A program made the translations under genes and the position numbers. A DNA stretch of 45,491 nucleotides from Escherichia phage fEg-Eco06. Numbering within the stretch: the first letter of the stretch is position 1; every line of letters starts with the position of its first letter. Shown in pieces: positions 1 through 44,471 of this stretch. Under the pieces are notes generated by a model, which worked only from the letters and a program-made list of their open reading frames with translations, was not told where the DNA came from and ran no database searches. The stretch is taken from sequence record PQ141284.1, one strand, 5' to 3'.

Positions 1-125
1 CCAAACGCAACAATAGAAGAGACTATTGCAGGAGATACAACAATACAAACACCAATAAAATTCACTTGCACACTGAGATAGAATAGGCTACTATTCATTT
101 ACGCAAACGAGAGGAGAGACTGAAG

Positions 126-17045: not shown

Positions 17046-17458
17046 TGGGCTACTTTGAGGACTTAACAAAAGCGTTTGATGTGCCGCTGGTAGCCTTCGG
17101 AACCACCAACGGCATCAAGGTAGCGCTTGAAAACATCGACGCGCCGACGTCAACAGATACGCCGTATCTGGCAAGTTACATGTTGCTGGCGGATACCGAG
17201 CAGGCTGACTTATTCTTCACGGAACAACGCGCCGGTGTCTATCAGATAGACATTAACTACGCATCGGTGAAAGGTAGCGCGCCAATCAATAAAATGGCAG
17301 ACTTACTTAACACGGCGTTTAAATCAGGTAAGTCATTTTCACGTAACGACATCTGCGCCGAGGTTCAATCGGTTAGCCTGGGGCCGCTGATTGTAGAAAA
17401 CGGATGGGCCAAAAGACCATTGTCAATTAACTTTATTGCATTCACCAAGAGGCTGTGA
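17042..17458 (+). CDS. tail terminator-like protein (putative)
   Basis: 138 aa immediately upstream of major tail gene. Confidence 0.45.
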   Translation: MMGYFEDLTKAFDVPLVAFGTTNGIKVALENIDAPTSTDTPYLASYMLLADTEQADLFFTEQRAGVYQIDINYASVKGSAPINKMADLLNTAFKSGKSFSRNDICAEVQSVSLGPLIVENGWAKRPLSINFIAFTKRL

Positions 17459-17460
17459 AT

Positions 17461-18627
17461 ATGGCTACAACTCCTTTTAAGGGCGCGAATACCGCGCAAT
17501 TCTATGTGGCGGAAACTACCCCGGGCGTAACACCGGCTAACCCGGTATGGTCGCCACTGCGTAACACAGGCGGCGTTCCTGCCATTACCCGTGACACACT
17601 GACCTCCAACGAACTGGACGGCAGCCGCGAAACTACATCCATCCGCACCGGTAACAAGCAGGTTAGCGGTGAATATGCTATTGAGCTTAGCTCGAAAAGC
17701 CAGGATGACTGGCTAGCCGGGGCTTTAGGCTCTACGTGGCAGGCTGGCGTATCTCTGTCAGGGCTATCGATTACCGTCGCACCGGCTGGCAAGACGTTCA
17801 CACGTGCCACCGGCAGCTTTATCACTGACGGAGTTGGGGTAGGCGACCTGATTGCGTTTACCGATTTAACTGGCGATAATGCAAAACCATTTATTGTTAC
17901 TGCAGTAACGGCTACGGTTGTTACTGGTGCAGGCATCCAACACACCCTGACCACCGAGACAAAAACTAGTAAGGCTAAAACTGGCGACACGCTGGAAACC
18001 GGTAATACGTGTAAGACGTTCTCTATCCTTACCTGGTACAAAGGCCAGTGCGGCGGTACTGACGCGTACACGTTAACCAAAGGCGTGGAAGTTTCTGGTT
18101 TTACCATCGAACAGGCTGTTAACGCGATGGTAACTGGCAGCTTCCCATTCATCGGTCGCAGTCAGGAGATTCTCACCACGCCGCCGACCGGTTCCAACTT
18201 CTCATCTGTCACTTTTGGTGATGAGCCGTTTTCTTCGGTTGACGTTTCCGTGTTCGATGGTTCTACGCCGTTGCGATGCGACAGTCTGACTATCACCAAC
18301 GATAACAGCGCGTCCGCGCAGTTCGAACTTGGTAACACTAACGTAGCGTTTGTTGAGCGTAGCCGCGCGGCTAACACTTTCTCCATCTCCGGCAAGCTGT
18401 ACGACATGGCGATGATTCAGAAGTTTATCAACGAACAGCAGGTAGAGATTAACTCTATTCTGGCGGGGGTAAACGGGGCTATGTCTTTCAGTTTGAAACG
18501 CGCAGAGCTTACGGCGGTTACACCAGAGATTGGCGGACCTGAGTCAATCACTCAGTCCATTGAGGGGCAGGCCACCGGCAACCAGTACCAGTCGTCTATC
18601 GTAATTCAACGTATCACCTACGCATAA
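17461..18627 (+). CDS. major tail protein (putative)
   Basis: 388 aa from ATG 17461; last gene before tail chaperones; followed by strong terminator. Confidence 0.55.
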   Translation: MATTPFKGANTAQFYVAETTPGVTPANPVWSPLRNTGGVPAITRDTLTSNELDGSRETTSIRTGNKQVSGEYAIELSSKSQDDWLAGALGSTWQAGVSLSGLSITVAPAGKTFTRATGSFITDGVGVGDLIAFTDLTGDNAKPFIVTAVTATVVTGAGIQHTLTTETKTSKAKTGDTLETGNTCKTFSILTWYKGQCGGTDAYTLTKGVEVSGFTIEQAVNAMVTGSFPFIGRSQEILTTPPTGSNFSSVTFGDEPFSSVDVSVFDGSTPLRCDSLTITNDNSASAQFELGNTNVAFVERSRAANTFSISGKLYDMAMIQKFINEQQVEINSILAGVNGAMSFSLKRAELTAVTPEIGGPESITQSIEGQATGNQYQSSIVIQRITYA

Positions 18628-18632
18628 AACTA

Positions 18633-18656
18633 AGGCCCCTTTCGGGGCCTTTTTCT
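18633..18656. terminator. bidirectional intrinsic terminator
   Basis: AGGCCCC / GGGGCCT stem with TTTC loop and T5 run; between convergent + tail gene and - kinase gene. Confidence 0.7.
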
Positions 18657-19210
18657 TACAAACCTAATTTTAAAGCAATGTCTATAACGTTCGATTTAAC
18701 GTCACCCGGTATGATGTAGGTGTCGTAATCTTTTACACCACTAACATCATACAGATAGCCACGGCTATCGCCGATGAACGTATAGCCGTCACGATGGAGG
18801 CGAACGATTTGCACGTCATGCCCTGCGGCGACGATAGGGGCAACTTCACTGGCGAATCCACCGTCGGACACTACAAAAACTTCGTCGCCGTCAGGCAAGT
18901 TTTCAGCAAGATACTTACCGAAATAATCATCGCCGAATACCGGTTTAATGAATTGCTCAGAAATGGCAATCATTAACTGGCGGCGGGACAACCCATTAAG
19001 AAAACCCTCGGGTTTTTCTTTCCGCGCCCGGTCGTCGTAGCCGTCGAGAAATTCGTGGTAAGCATCCTGGCCTAACGCTGCCAAAGCAATATTGAACATC
19101 GGATTCTTGAAACGGGTAGTTCCTTTCGCAAAGCCCATCTCTACCAGCGCCCTAGCAAGTGTGTCTTTCCCACAACCAGCAGGGCCATTAAGAATAATTA
19201 CCTTAGCCAT
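18656..19210 (-). CDS. P-loop kinase (nucleotide or polynucleotide kinase-like)
   Basis: 184 aa; Walker A GPAGCGKDT at N-terminus. Confidence 0.65.
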   Translation of the reverse strand: MAKVIILNGPAGCGKDTLARALVEMGFAKGTTRFKNPMFNIALAALGQDAYHEFLDGYDDRARKEKPEGFLNGLSRRQLMIAISEQFIKPVFGDDYFGKYLAENLPDGDEVFVVSDGGFASEVAPIVAAGHDVQIVRLHRDGYTFIGDSRGYLYDVSGVKDYDTYIIPGDVKSNVIDIALKLGL

Positions 19211-19698
19211 TACTTATCACTCCCGTGTGATTTTAAGTGTGTAGAGTCCCCGTTACAGTCGTACTCAGTGACCGCGTGTGTCGTGATTCCTAAGCCACGG
19301 AAATGCTTAATCACCGCGGGAGAGTCGTCGAATGCGCACAAGATTCTTTCCAGTCCGAAAGCACGCAACACCTCTTCTTTAATTACGATGTCTTTTCTGT
19401 TGTCGTGTTTGCTGCGCATGATTAGCGTGTCAAACCTAACGTTATTCTCTCGTAACCATTCGCGAGTCTCCTCCTCAGCGTCATCACTTCGCCCGGTAAG
19501 GATAATTATAGTAAGTCCGGAATGCCACAGTACGCTACACAAATGGATATTGTCGTATATCGGAGCGTCATCTTTGCAGGCCATGTTAAATGGCTTCCAC
19601 GCCCACGTTTCTCCGTAGTTATCTTTTGGTAACAGGTGTAAGCGATGGGTACCGTCGGCCAATGTCCCGTCTAAATCGAAAATTACAATATCTTTCAT
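19210..19698 (-). CDS. HAD-family phosphatase, polynucleotide kinase 3'-phosphatase-like
   Basis: 162 aa; FDLDGTLA motif I; TGRSD and KDIVIKEE segments resemble the T4 Pnk phosphatase domain (from memory). Confidence 0.65.
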   Translation of the reverse strand: MKDIVIFDLDGTLADGTHRLHLLPKDNYGETWAWKPFNMACKDDAPIYDNIHLCSVLWHSGLTIIILTGRSDDAEEETREWLRENNVRFDTLIMRSKHDNRKDIVIKEEVLRAFGLERILCAFDDSPAVIKHFRGLGITTHAVTEYDCNGDSTHLKSHGSDK

Positions 19699-20825
19699 CC
19701 CAGCATCTCCGGTGAAATAGTTAAACGTGCGACCTCGCCATATTCGGCGCTATAAGTAATTACATTTGCACTGCGGCCCGACATCCATCCGCCGCGAGAG
19801 GCGTAGGCGTCTTTAGCCGCTAAGGTGCGGTGTTGCTCAACAATCATGTTACGGCTTTCTACAATCTTCTGGTGGTGCAGATGTCCTACGTGGGCGTAGC
19901 TGTAAACACTCTCGCCGAACGCTTTACGGAACTTGGCAATCATAACCGGTTCGATAGCGTCGAATCGTGCTTTATGCCCGTGATGGAAGAACAGCGTCGT
20001 TTTGCCGTGTTGCACCATCTTATAAACATCCGGCGACGTATCGACGAATACACGAGGCTCGTTGTCGTACAGTGTGCTGAACATCTCCGCCAGCCAAATC
20101 ATCCCGGATTCGTCGTGGTTCCCCTGAACTATAAGCAAGCGAACAGTTTTATGCTTAACCAGAGCCATATCAACAACACGGCGGACCATGCGAATCATGT
20201 AGCGGACAAGTTTCTGGTAACGCGTGTCGGCGTCAAGGACATGACCACTCGCCGGTGTAACGGCGTCAAGACTATCGAAGTGAGCTAAGTCGCCAAGAAG
20301 ATTAATAACCCCCGTACCTGCATCCGGTGCTTTCTGAAACGCAGCATCAAACCAACGAGAGAATAAGTCCTCCGCGATTTTCATATCCCAGTCGTCGCCG
20401 CTCTCGTCAGCCCAGGCTAACATACCGAGATGGAAATCAGACACGGTGTACAGGTTAAGCAGCTTGTCGTCACGTTTAGCCCGGGCGGCCTTAACTGGCG
20501 GAACGGGAGTAATCTCCGACTTCATGCCTTCGACTACGGCTTTCATCAACTCAACCTGACGTTCGGCATCGGTGTCTGTCTTAACCCACTGCAACTTAGT
20601 GTTACCGAACTCGTCCACCAGAGACGACGTGCCTTTAATCTTGTAGCCGTCTGGTACAAGGTGGCTTACGTCCCGCCCGTGGCCTACGCCTTTCTTAGCC
20701 AGCTTCGCTTTACGGATTCGGATAACGCGGTCTGAGATTCCGTATTTACGGGCGATATCGATATTCTTCATCCCGGCGTTCAATTCTTCCTGTAATTGCT
20801 CGTCGGTTATTTTCTTCTGGGCCAT
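19695..20825 (-). CDS. calcineurin-like metallophosphoesterase with N-terminal HTH-like region
   Basis: 376 aa; DFHLG, GDLAHFD, GNHD, HHGH, GHLHH metal-binding motifs; GAGGAAG RBS. Confidence 0.7.
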   Translation of the reverse strand: MAQKKITDEQLQEELNAGMKNIDIARKYGISDRVIRIRKAKLAKKGVGHGRDVSHLVPDGYKIKGTSSLVDEFGNTKLQWVKTDTDAERQVELMKAVVEGMKSEITPVPPVKAARAKRDDKLLNLYTVSDFHLGMLAWADESGDDWDMKIAEDLFSRWFDAAFQKAPDAGTGVINLLGDLAHFDSLDAVTPASGHVLDADTRYQKLVRYMIRMVRRVVDMALVKHKTVRLLIVQGNHDESGMIWLAEMFSTLYDNEPRVFVDTSPDVYKMVQHGKTTLFFHHGHKARFDAIEPVMIAKFRKAFGESVYSYAHVGHLHHQKIVESRNMIVEQHRTLAAKDAYASRGGWMSGRSANVITYSAEYGEVARLTISPEMLG

Positions 20826-20863
20826 GCTTACTTCCTCGTGTTTAGGATTTGTCTTATAGTAGC

Positions 20864-21082
20864 CTACTTCTCTTTCACGTTCGAGTTACAAGCCCAGATT
20901 AAAATGAATACCCACGGCAACAGAATCCACCCGAGAAATAAGTTAGCCATGAATATCGCCAGCTTTGCTTTATGGTTACGCATATGTGCCACCAAAAACG
21001 GGATAAAATAAACGGCTACAAAAATAATTAAGAAGAACATAGTGATACCGGTCATAACATAACTCCTGATTTGAGATAACAT
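20864..21082 (-). CDS. small two-TM membrane protein, superinfection-immunity-like (putative)
   Basis: track ORF; likely true start is the internal ATG (MTGITMFF, near 21055) preceded by AGGAG; two hydrophobic helices; first gene after the 21099-21127 promoter. Confidence 0.45.
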   Translation of the reverse strand: MLSQIRSYVMTGITMFFLIIFVAVYFIPFLVAHMRNHKAKLAIFMANLFLGWILLPWVFILIWACNSNVKEK

Positions 21083-21098
21083 CGTTGGTGTAAGTGAA

Positions 21099-21127
21099 TA
21101 GTACGCTATTATATTGGGGTGTGCAAG
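21099..21127 (-). promoter_or_regulatory. sigma70-like promoter (TTGCAC-N17-TACTAT family)
   Basis: minus strand TTGCAC (21127-21122), 17-bp spacer, TACTAT (21104-21099). Confidence 0.55.
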
Positions 21128-21233
21128 TAGTGTGCTAGAATAATTTTGCGCCTAGTGTCGCACACGAAAAGCGGGTGGTTCCCGTCTGGCGCATTTCCTT
21201 TAACCAGTAACCTCTTAACCAAAGGATTAAAGA

Positions 21234-21650
21234 ATGAAACTTTCTGATTTTTATTACGAAGCGGAAGCCGAAAAGGGCGCACGTATGCCGATACCGCTAA
21301 AAGACGGTACTGATTCCGGGGAATGGCTTAATGTTGTTTCTCCTGAGGCGGACGTTGCCGTTAAGGCTATGCGCGCGTTCACCCTTGCATACCGGGCAGT
21401 ATTAGGGAAATTAAAACCGCTTCGTGATAAGTGCGAAGAGATGAAAGATTTCTCTGAATACAACCTGAAGATGGAAGACGCGGCGACGGACCTTAACCGT
21501 CAGTTAGCGATTGAATTGGTTAACGGGTGGAGTCTTGACGACGAATTCAATAAAGAGAATCTGAACACACTCCTGACGCAATATAAACGACTCGCGGAAC
21601 TTGTTGTTGTGTTTCATAACGAACAACTGCACCAGCTACAGGAAAAGTAG
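21234..21650 (+). CDS. tail assembly chaperone (G-like)
   Basis: 138 aa directly upstream of tape measure gene; followed by -1 frame ORF. Confidence 0.55.
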   Translation: MKLSDFYYEAEAEKGARMPIPLKDGTDSGEWLNVVSPEADVAVKAMRAFTLAYRAVLGKLKPLRDKCEEMKDFSEYNLKMEDAATDLNRQLAIELVNGWSLDDEFNKENLNTLLTQYKRLAELVVVFHNEQLHQLQEK

Positions 21651-34420: not shown

Positions 34421-34708
34421 CTAACTATAATAGTTCGCTATTAGGGCGTCAACCTGTTTAAACGAACCAACGACAAAAACATTAGCACCACGCTTACGCA
34501 TCCGCTCGTGCTCCCGTAACTGGTGTGGATCCGGCTTCGTGCTTTCGTCTTTCTTTATCTCGACGAACCAGATGACGCCGCCGGGGAGAATTACCAGCAG
34601 GTCAGGGGCGCCGGAACGTCCTTCGTAGGAAAGTTTACGAACGAGGCCACCAATGGCCTCGAATCGGTCTTTTGCGTATTTCTGTATTTTGCCCTCAGGC
34701 GTACTCAT
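34421..34708 (-). CDS. VRR-NUC domain nuclease
   Basis: ATG 34708 within track ORF 34421-34744; PDLLVILPGG...FVEIKKDE...QLREHERM segment. Confidence 0.6.
   Translation of the reverse strand: MSTPEGKIQKYAKDRFEAIGGLVRKLSYEGRSGAPDLLVILPGGVIWFVEIKKDESTKPDPHQLREHERMRKRGANVFVVGSFKQVDALIANYYS
34424..34452 (-). promoter_or_regulatory. sigma70-like promoter (TTGACN-N17-TATAGT family)
   Basis: minus strand TTGACG (34452-34447), 17-bp spacer, TATAGT (34429-34424); overlaps 3' end of VRR-NUC gene. Confidence 0.5.
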
Positions 34709-43605: not shown

Positions 43606-43839
43606 TTATTCCAGGTCTTCTAAAGTAGCTGTCATTCCGCGAACTTCAGCATCAGCGCTATATTTCCCACCAACGTTTTTCACGACACCGGATTTAACCA
43701 GCACCTTCAACGACCCTTCAATAATGGCTGAACTATAGTACTTAAAATAACTACGGCGCAAGTCGATAACACTGCATGACCCTTTTTTACGTGTTAACGA
43801 AACGACCGCCGTAAATACGCGTGACTGGAACTCTGTCAT
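43606..43839 (-). CDS. hypothetical protein
   Basis: 77 aa; ends in LEDLE. Confidence 0.45.
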   Translation of the reverse strand: MTEFQSRVFTAVVSLTRKKGSCSVIDLRRSYFKYYSSAIIEGSLKVLVKSGVVKNVGGKYSADAEVRGMTATLEDLE

Positions 43840-44006
43840 TTCACATTCTCCTTAATCCACGCTTCCACTTTCTCTGGGTCAAACGTACCGGGCTGACGAC
43901 GGCCCATAATGCGAATACAGCAATCAGGGAACTTCCCACTCTTTAGCCAGTTATTCAGCGTTCGACGAGTAACCCCAATACGCTCAGCTACTTCATTCTG
44001 TGTCAT
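43836..44006 (-). CDS. HTH DNA-binding protein (AlpA/excisionase-like)
   Basis: ATG 44006 with GAGGG RBS (track ORF starts at TTG 44039); NEVAERIGVTRRTLNNWLKSGKFP helix-turn-helix. Confidence 0.55.
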   Translation of the reverse strand: MTQNEVAERIGVTRRTLNNWLKSGKFPDCCIRIMGRRQPGTFDPEKVEAWIKENVK

Positions 44007-44442
44007 TCTCAAACCCTCATTATCAGTTAACGAAACCAAGTATACATTGCGAATAATGGGAAATCAAACATAATCGCACCTATTGACATTATGAAAATCT
44101 TCGTTTAAGGTGCTTCTATATCTTAGTTACTTTGATTCCTGTTCACCTTGTAATACCCGCTTGAAACGCAGCGGCGCCAAAGCGCCAGCGAAGTGTTAAG
44201 CGGCAGATTACTGAACATAAGAATTACCGTAACTTTCCTTCCGTAGTATCTCTGGTTGCCCTGGGCAAGTTCTATTCTCATCGGCAGCATATCTCTTAAG
44301 TATATGATAATTAAAAGTTTCTATAGTTGCCGTGAGCAATGTTGAGAGTACTTCACTCCGCTGGGGTGGGCTAACGCCCACCCACTGCGTTGCGTACTCT
44401 TTTAAGAAACGAAAGAATCACAGCGGCAACGTAACTATTCTC

Positions 44443-44471
44443 TTGCACACCCCAACATAATAGGGTACTAT
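44443..44471 (+). promoter_or_regulatory. sigma70-like promoter (TTGCAC-N17-TACTAT family)
   Basis: TTGCAC (44443-44448), 17-bp spacer, TACTAT (44466-44471); 25 nt upstream of gene at 44497. Confidence 0.55.

Follow-up and report, generated by a model that had tools for sequence, protein, structure and literature searches.

An antisense locus of Escherichia phage fEg-Eco06 encoding a helix-turn-helix-tethered metallophosphoesterase, a PseT-type 3'-phosphatase and a gp1-like kinase

What would a phage do with a phosphoesterase, a phosphatase and a kinase that it encodes against the direction of its own tail operon? The question arises in Escherichia phage fEg-Eco06, a member of the genus Kagunavirus (Guernseyvirinae), of which a stretch of 45,491 nucleotides (sequence record PQ141284.1; hereafter the window) was analysed. 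Antisense between the tail-tube and tail-chaperone genes lie genes for a small superinfection-immunity-type membrane protein (Imm), a metallophosphoesterase (MPE), a HAD-type phosphatase (HAD) and a P-loop kinase. An original prediction, made from the sequence alone, had taken these four genes for one island and its enzymes for a possible nucleic-acid end-healing set, directed for example against host anticodon nucleases, with nucleotide metabolism or the degradation of signalling nucleotides as alternatives. The assignments reported here describe a mosaic locus in which three exchangeable modules are grouped around phrog_704, a phage nuclease family of very wide occurrence, and we see about an even chance that the cassette is an early DNA-breakdown set that also serves nucleotide salvage or the cleaning of DNA ends. 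Nucleotide metabolism, offered originally as an alternative, fits better than tRNA repair.

Four conserved genes in the tail module

All four minus-strand open reading frames were found as described, opposite to the surrounding late operon. They encode Imm (20864..21055; 63 amino acids, two transmembrane helices), a helix-turn-helix (HTH)-tethered binuclear MPE (19695..20825; 376 amino acids), a stand-alone HAD 3'-phosphatase of the PseT/Pnkp type (19210..19698; 162 amino acids) and the P-loop kinase (18656..19210; 184 amino acids). The reading frames of MPE, HAD and the kinase overlap successively by 4 nucleotides (ATGA) and 1 nucleotide (TAATG), which suggests translational coupling. The ratio of nonsynonymous to synonymous substitution rates against relatives is 0.02-0.11 for each of the four genes; hence all four are real and under purifying selection.

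The region 18400-21400 is 99.0% identical to Escherichia phage VB_EcoS-Golestan (NC_042084), and gene order, orientation and flanks are identical in Golestan gp19-gp22 and in other Kagunavirus and Jerseyvirus genomes. Nothing substantive differs between the two phages in this region; they differ elsewhere, for example in a probable fEg-Eco06 intein (see below). A megablast search with the 3-kb region returned 326 phage records, chiefly Salmonella Jersey-like phages and Escherichia Kagunavirus, in which the genes are labelled superinfection immunity, DNA repair exonuclease or metallophosphoesterase, polynucleotide kinase or acid phosphatase, and dNMP (deoxynucleoside monophosphate) kinase or hypothetical protein. 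The four-gene unit is an ordinary one, already annotated in hundreds of phages.

A PseT-type phosphatase beside a gp1-like kinase

The HAD protein carries the motifs FDLDGTL (residues 7-13), TGRSD (68-72) and KDIVIKEE (102-109), from which a resemblance to the 3'-phosphatase domain of T4 polynucleotide kinase had been proposed, and the resemblance is borne out by profile, PDB and BLASTP matches. HAD scored 72.7 bits against PF25109 (HAD_PNKP; cut-off 27.6) and matched phrog_415 at 3e-65, the family that the phosphatase half of T-even PseT matches at 1.9e-30; its best PDB sequence matches were Pnkp1 (4xrp) and T4 Pnk. BLASTP aligned it with T-even PseT over 143 residues at 31% identity (E 3e-17), and the DxDxT, Ser/Thr, Arg, Asp, Lys and Asp-Asp elements are kept in the catalytic set of D8, D10, T12, T68, R70, D99, K102, D124 and D125. 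In T4 Pnkp the equivalent residues include the DxDxT nucleophile and acid-base pair, a phosphate-binding Ser/Thr and Lys, and a Mg-binding Asp-Asp, and the T4 phosphatase acts efficiently on 3'-dNMPs and on 3'-phosphorylated DNA (PMC3592404). By its sequence, HAD is a genuine PseT/Pnkp-type 3'-phosphatase with catalytic residues intact. Its 162 residues comprise the HAD domain only, without the fused N-terminal Pnk-type 5'-kinase domain; unlike T4 PseT, it stands alone, beside a kinase of another, gp1-like family and without a partner RNA ligase. The GenBank label "polynucleotide kinase", which many records attach to this protein, is on these sequence grounds a misnomer for a phosphatase, and the true kinase is the adjoining gene product of the dNMP-kinase family.

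That kinase has the Walker A motif expected of it, GPAGCGKD. It belongs to phrog_139 (9.2e-45, profile positions 82-243), as does T4 gp1 (1.8e-65, positions 83-261). Single-sequence and profile searches of the PDB returned only P-loop matches to AAA+ ATPases, and a structure model built from a 30-sequence alignment (predicted local distance difference test, pLDDT, 94.5) had T4 gp1 (PDB 1dek) as its best fold match. The two proteins have in common the GKD of the P-loop and residues R61, R77, D116 and E122. No match was obtained to phrog_505 or phrog_2071, the families of the PseT kinase half, and membership of the polynucleotide-kinase fold was not found. Family membership and the modelled fold place the protein as a divergent member of the T4 gp1 dNMP-kinase family and not of the polynucleotide-kinase family, and the role of polynucleotide 5'-kinase in an end-healing set, proposed originally, does not hold on this assignment. 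With 184 residues against 241, it lacks an insertion present in gp1; its subfamily motifs are DGGF, VRLHR, SE..KP and GDSRxY, of which DGGF, SE..KP and GDSRxY are invariant and its own. Since HAD is a phosphatase only and the kinase is of the dNMP-kinase family, a role in tRNA repair or against anticodon nucleases is not to be assumed.

A metallophosphoesterase with nuclease signatures

MPE falls below the curated Pfam cut-offs (Metallophos 18.8 against 21.5; Metallophos_2 21.7 against 27), and its family is recognised only through PHROG 704 and through its fold. It matches phrog_704, annotated as "DNA repair exonuclease", at 1.5e-167; members of this family occur in more than 2,000 phage records, and an exhaustive search of representative sequences gave 4,637 MPE clusters at E <= 1e-3. 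The structure model (pLDDT 89.3) comprises a tri-helical HTH (residues 8-44), a linker made of a beta-hairpin and a helix (61-102) and the MPE domain (119-376). The domain carries the motifs D130xH132, G178D179xxH182, G235N236H237D238, H282 and G314H315xH317; across 37 diverse homologues, D130, H132, G178-D179, N236-H237, H282, G314 and H317 are invariant and H182 is conserved in at least 90%.

Two of these residues bear on the substrate. A profile search of the PDB gave sub-threshold motif matches only, and these alignments were used to map residues and not to argue homology. In them, His81 and His113 of a nuclease MPE of P. putida are matched by H182 and H237, which also align with the GDLLH and GNHD segments of T. 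maritima Mre11. In the P. putida enzyme, His81 and His113 are reported to be required for DNA cleavage and not for generic phosphodiesterase activity (PMC7826289). Taken with these two signature histidines of nucleases, the HTH indicates that the fEg-Eco06 enzyme acts on DNA.

The top fold matches were the exonuclease subunit DP1 of PolD, SbcD and Mre11. No closeness to lambda-phosphatase or CthPnkp (PPP-family) enzymes was found by fold or sequence, so the proposal that this calcineurin-like phosphoesterase forms part of an end-healing set loses ground. Mre11/SbcD, archaeal PolD DP1 and the P. putida MPE share with it the binuclear fold, the metal ligands and the GDxxH/GNHD histidines. It is unlike Mre11/SbcD in having its own N-terminal HTH and linker, and no Rad50/SbcC partner is present in the annotation of the near-identical genome NC_042084. 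The best reading of the model is an HTH-tethered nuclease or phosphodiesterase of the Mre11/SbcD type, predicted to be Mn-dependent.

The fold search also leaves some room for a signalling role, in which MPE would break down immune signals made of cyclic (oligo)nucleotides or would act as a protein phosphatase, with HAD and the kinase acting on the products. The cyclic-nucleotide phosphodiesterase Rv0805 is among the top Foldseek matches, ranked near the nucleases (E 5e-8), and in environmental phages MPE often lies beside Q-like antiterminators, resolvases and lysis genes. Such surroundings resemble the position of the phosphatase in the lambda nin region; NinI of lambda dephosphorylates proteins. 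We consider this role very unlikely: the HTH and the two histidines indicate a DNA substrate, and neither PADLOC nor any other match ties the proteins to cyclic-nucleotide systems.

A nuclease gene between two exchange slots

The four genes do not behave as the single island originally described. Using an alignment of eight MPE sequences, we collected 80 IMG/VR loci encoding an MPE homologue (44-100% identity). HAD and the kinase lie directly downstream in 8 of these, HAD alone in 2 and a kinase 5 kb away in 1, and both are absent within 6 kb in the other 69; most MPE homologues being without the pair, the nuclease does not need it. No conserved MPE partner emerged across the 80 loci, where its neighbours vary among Q-like, lysis, HNH, resolvase and DUF3310-like genes. 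Of 13 close relatives with at least 84% MPE identity, seven have both HAD and the kinase, six have neither and none has one alone. The Imm gene is kept or replaced independently of the other modules. The locus is therefore a conserved nuclease gene, MPE, between two exchange slots, one holding Imm and the other the HAD-kinase pair, and comprises three independently exchangeable modules.

Several replacements could be read in relatives (L014 7128-7358, L017 7559-8170, L023 7471-8142 and L010 5609-5935). In the pair-less loci inspected, the slot after MPE holds a 76-amino-acid DUF3310-like gene (phrog_2452), in some cases with a Rha/KilAC antirepressor-like gene as well. In place of Imm, two inspected loci and phage Bas76 encode a protein of 108-109 amino acids with a hydrophobic, signal-like stretch near its N terminus. 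Measured against the same relatives, synonymous divergence is about 1.0-1.4 for HAD, about 0.4-0.5 for the kinase and about 0.6-0.7 for MPE, and so sharp a contrast between adjoining genes suggests recombination breakpoints within the cassette. A K-12 cryptic-prophage phenotype that separates BASEL phages Bas70-73 from Bas74-76 was considered as a possible correlate of the HAD-kinase pair and set aside: Bas76 lacks the pair, but O-antigen glycosylation and tailspike type are held responsible for the phenotype.

The same families recur in other phages. The closest parallel in composition comes from the T1-like Drexlerviridae, which have the same three families in the same order at 41-58% identity, with the pair again optional. 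A 2026 pangenome of that family classes the "DNA repair exonuclease" as persistent, with 508 of 522 genomes carrying it; the genes found most frequently just behind it are those for PNK and dNMP kinase, which the authors connect with nucleotide supply (PMC13164509). There the module closes the replication region, in the same orientation and ahead of the lysis cassette. In fEg-Eco06 it is inverted between the tail-tube and chaperone genes, is preceded by Imm, and has a promoter copy of its own and a bidirectional terminator. The order MPE-HAD-kinase is found also in Webervirus and in podovirus Nifs112, where a DNA ligase gene comes next; the kinase follows MPE in phi80-18 and in phi-A318, again with a ligase next in the latter; and it adjoins ligase and dUTPase genes in EaPF7. 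Elsewhere the kinase lies beside endonuclease VII or exonuclease genes, or near thymidylate synthase. In phiKMV-like phages HAD stands by itself, following exonuclease and endonuclease VII genes, and a Krischvirus has it beside nrdB.

Possible healing of nucleic-acid ends

These neighbourhoods bear directly on end-healing, of DNA or of RNA. In the DNA version, HAD would clear 3'-phosphates, the gp1-fold kinase would phosphorylate 5'-OH DNA as a non-orthologous replacement of the PseT kinase, and host LigA or a phage ligase would seal breaks with 3'-phosphate and 5'-OH ends left by MPE or by a host or defence nuclease. The PseT-type HAD with its complete catalytic residues would suit this role, as would the overlap of the HAD and kinase reading frames and their joint presence or absence in the sampled relatives; the kinase stands directly beside a DNA ligase in Nifs112, phi-A318 and EaPF7, and exonuclease and endonuclease VII genes usually precede the cassette. 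Nucleases of the P. putida MPE family are reported to leave mixed 3'-phosphate and 3'-OH ends (PMC7826289). The family of the kinase weakens the case. So does the ligase, which had been noted as not visible and is indeed absent from the annotation of the closest genome, NC_042084. A further point against it is the phrog_420 protein that follows the kinase in rV5-like phages and in ICP1: the phiTE member matches the NT5C nucleotidase family, and that of ICP1 has no Pfam match. On balance we regard DNA end-healing as possible but rather unlikely.

RNA or tRNA repair against host anticodon nucleases, in which 2',3'-cyclic-phosphate/5'-OH RNA ends would be healed, has in its favour that the best PDB sequence match of HAD is Pnkp1 of a bacterial RNA-repair complex. 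Set against this are a kinase that is not of the Pnk type, an MPE that is not of the lambda-phosphatase/CthPnkp type and neighbourhoods in other phages that speak of DNA and nucleotide metabolism, not of RNA ligases. No RNA ligase is annotated in NC_042084, ARAGORN found no tRNA gene in the window, and the PADLOC models gave no match to any of the four proteins. We know of no E. coli ligase that seals healed 3'-OH/5'-phosphate RNA ends, RtcB requiring unhealed ones. We hold this version to be highly improbable. Of the original end-healing proposal, then, the PseT-type 3'-phosphatase stands, and the kinase, the phosphoesterase and most of the case for tRNA repair do not.

Proposed function of the cassette

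For the breakdown-and-salvage set that we favour, a sequence of three steps can be proposed. The MPE nuclease would cut DNA, either the host chromosome or replication and recombination intermediates. HAD would strip 3'-phosphates from ends, oligonucleotides or 3'-dNMPs that otherwise block degradation, priming or sealing. Finally, the kinase would turn freed dNMPs into deoxynucleoside diphosphates, feeding the phage's own DNA polymerase. In favour of this scheme are the family and fold assignments, the intact catalytic residues of HAD and MPE, the action of the T4 phosphatase on 3'-dNMPs, and gene neighbours of the kinase or HAD elsewhere such as dUTPase, thymidylate synthase, nrdB and the phrog_420 protein.

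Several observations weigh against this scheme. The substrates of MPE, HAD and the kinase and the functional coupling among them are deduced from families, folds and sequence. The match to Rv0805 stands close to those of the nucleases, and HAD is of the polynucleotide-end type and not a classical 5'-nucleotidase, so that it fits end-healing as well as salvage; the same is true of the kinase, which neighbours DNA ligase in three unrelated phages. Identity between the kinase and gp1 is only 24%, and a profile comparison of the two (hhalign) aligned the P-loop region only, with a probability of 54%, so it is the common PHROG family and the fold that link the kinase to gp1. In place of several gp1 motifs the kinase has subfamily-specific ones, for example DGGF for DTR of gp1, and the phosphate acceptor could therefore differ. 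The pair is missing from most MPE loci, as noted above, and early timing is deduced from promoter sequence.

Phages T1 and TLS break down host DNA and reuse its nucleotides, and the responsible genes have not yet been assigned (PMC11447400). The phrog_704 nuclease is a reasonable candidate for T1-like host-DNA breakdown. A narrower proposal, to which we attach little probability, is that the HTH-tethered MPE is the host-DNA-breakdown nuclease of T1-like and Jersey-like siphophages, with HAD and the gp1-fold kinase acting as a split kinase-phosphatase. MPE might then leave some 3'-phosphate ends, as the P. putida enzyme does, and HAD and the kinase would clean the products for reuse or religation. 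If true, this role of phrog_704 would bear on a long-standing question in the biology of T1, and a gp1-fold enzyme with a PseT-type phosphatase would form one functional unit, a new composition for a split kinase-phosphatase.

The superinfection-immunity gene

The fourth module conforms to its description as a small two-transmembrane protein resembling superinfection-immunity proteins. Imm scores 50.6 bits against PF14373 (Imm_superinfect; gathering score 27.9) and matches phrog_1039 at 3.1e-24. Its reading frame is open over 20864-21082 (72 amino acids), and an ATG at 21055 gives 63 amino acids. This ATG has an AGGAG Shine-Dalgarno sequence 7 nucleotides upstream and is the start annotated in OR594183 and NC_042084; it is probably the real one. 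Read directly, the 63-amino-acid sequence has hydrophobic stretches at about residues 4-23 and 32-55, with HMRNHKAK between them. A two-transmembrane protein of this type probably blocks DNA entry by superinfecting phages.

Promoter and terminator of the antisense unit

The unit lies between the tail-tube gene (17455-18627, plus strand; Phage_tube_2, 7e-38) and the tail-assembly-chaperone gene (21234-21650, plus strand; Phage_TAC_4), and has its own control elements. The promoter TTGCAC-N17-TACTAT that had been assigned to it is real, repeated and kept in relatives, and only its coordinates had been off by one base: it occupies 21098..21126 on the minus strand, with hexamers at 21126->21121 and 21103->21098. 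It agrees with the sigma-70 consensus at 7 of 12 positions, which makes it weak by consensus, and a generic promoter scan of the window did not pick it up. The exact pattern occurs four times in the window (66-94 and 44443-44471, plus strand; 11553-11581 and 21098-21126, minus strand), against 0.01 expected. A block of about 38 nucleotides is common to all four copies, each lying 20-45 nucleotides upstream of a Shine-Dalgarno sequence and ATG, and relatives retain the pattern in the corresponding position, including those with another first gene downstream.

We infer from these copies a family of early-type promoters for the host polymerase. Two of them head a series of plus-strand genes, the first of them small, at the start of the window, and this sharing of the block suggests early expression; the antisense unit is probably transcribed early by host RNA polymerase. 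T4 gene 1, which encodes the dNMP kinase, likewise stands amid the late structural genes 57A, 3, 2 and 4 (L093 2650-3375), and offers a precedent for an early enzyme gene inside a morphogenesis cluster.

The promoter block carries a palindrome, AATAG-N4-CTATT, overlapping the -10 hexamer. Partial copies of the block (TATAATAGCGAACTATTCA), half-sites near 34429, 37844, 40766 and 40819, lie in the replication region. A phage repressor may use this palindromic block as its operator. The copy at 11553-11581 drives a single-gene antisense insert in the head module, a 67-amino-acid reading frame (11322-11525, minus strand) for which a Pfam search returned no match.

At the other end of the unit, the bidirectional terminator that had been proposed is well supported. 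It separates the tail-tube gene from the kinase gene (18632..18656, both strands) and consists of an 8-bp, GC-rich hairpin (18632-18651) with a plus-strand T-run reaching 18656; on the minus strand the same hairpin is followed by AGTTTTAT. The hairpin was called terminator-like on both strands; the plus strand folds at -15.4 kcal/mol (z -4.1) and the minus strand at -19.9 kcal/mol (z -4.9), and 0 of 200 shuffled controls folded equally well.

An int-alpA-like RNA and a putative divergent promoter beside the unit

Adjacent to the four-gene unit, and outside it, lies a match to the int-alpA structured RNA (Rfam RF02996; 21145..21209, plus strand), which is full-length against the model and scores 36.6 bits (gathering score 35.8). 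The element sits in the leader of the chaperone/tape-measure operon, back-to-back with the promoter of the antisense unit. RF02996 gave no match at the gathering score in 12 related loci, and conservation in relatives was judged by alignment and pair counts. By these measures the element is nearly invariant in Kagunavirus and is also conserved in Jersey-like loci, where the flanks share about 72% identity. Paired cells make up 97.8% of the alignment, and sliding the structure lowers this to 30-66%. Double changes are seen in three pairs, and only the plus strand accommodates the G-U pairs. Thermodynamic stability is ordinary (z -0.9).

Immediately upstream, a putative plus-strand promoter can be read from the sequence (21114-21141; TTGGGG-N16-TGcTAGAAT), with an extended -10 at 21133-21141. 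It overlaps the -35 region of the minus-strand promoter, and the -10-like hexamer in relatives is TAGAAT, TATTCT or TAAACT. The extended -10 is predicted to start the late transcript at the 5' end of the int-alpA-like RNA, and the two promoters could form a divergent, possibly competing pair and so act as a switch between transcription of the antisense unit and of the tail operon. A 67-amino-acid protein with an excisionase/MerR-type HTH_17 domain is encoded in the divergent early control region (43836-44039, minus strand). It gave no match to the Phage_AlpA model, and we take it to be of the same broad kind as the AlpA regulators; a link between this protein and the int-alpA-like RNA is conceivable.

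Elsewhere in the window, the head-morphogenesis (Mu F-like) gene (8861-10831, plus strand) encodes 656 amino acids, compared with 347 in Golestan. Its Phage_Mu_F domain is interrupted after residue 236 by an insert that weakly matches Intein_splicing (E 4e-4, below the cut-off). With Cys as its first residue and the end ...VKN|C, the insert is probably an intein.

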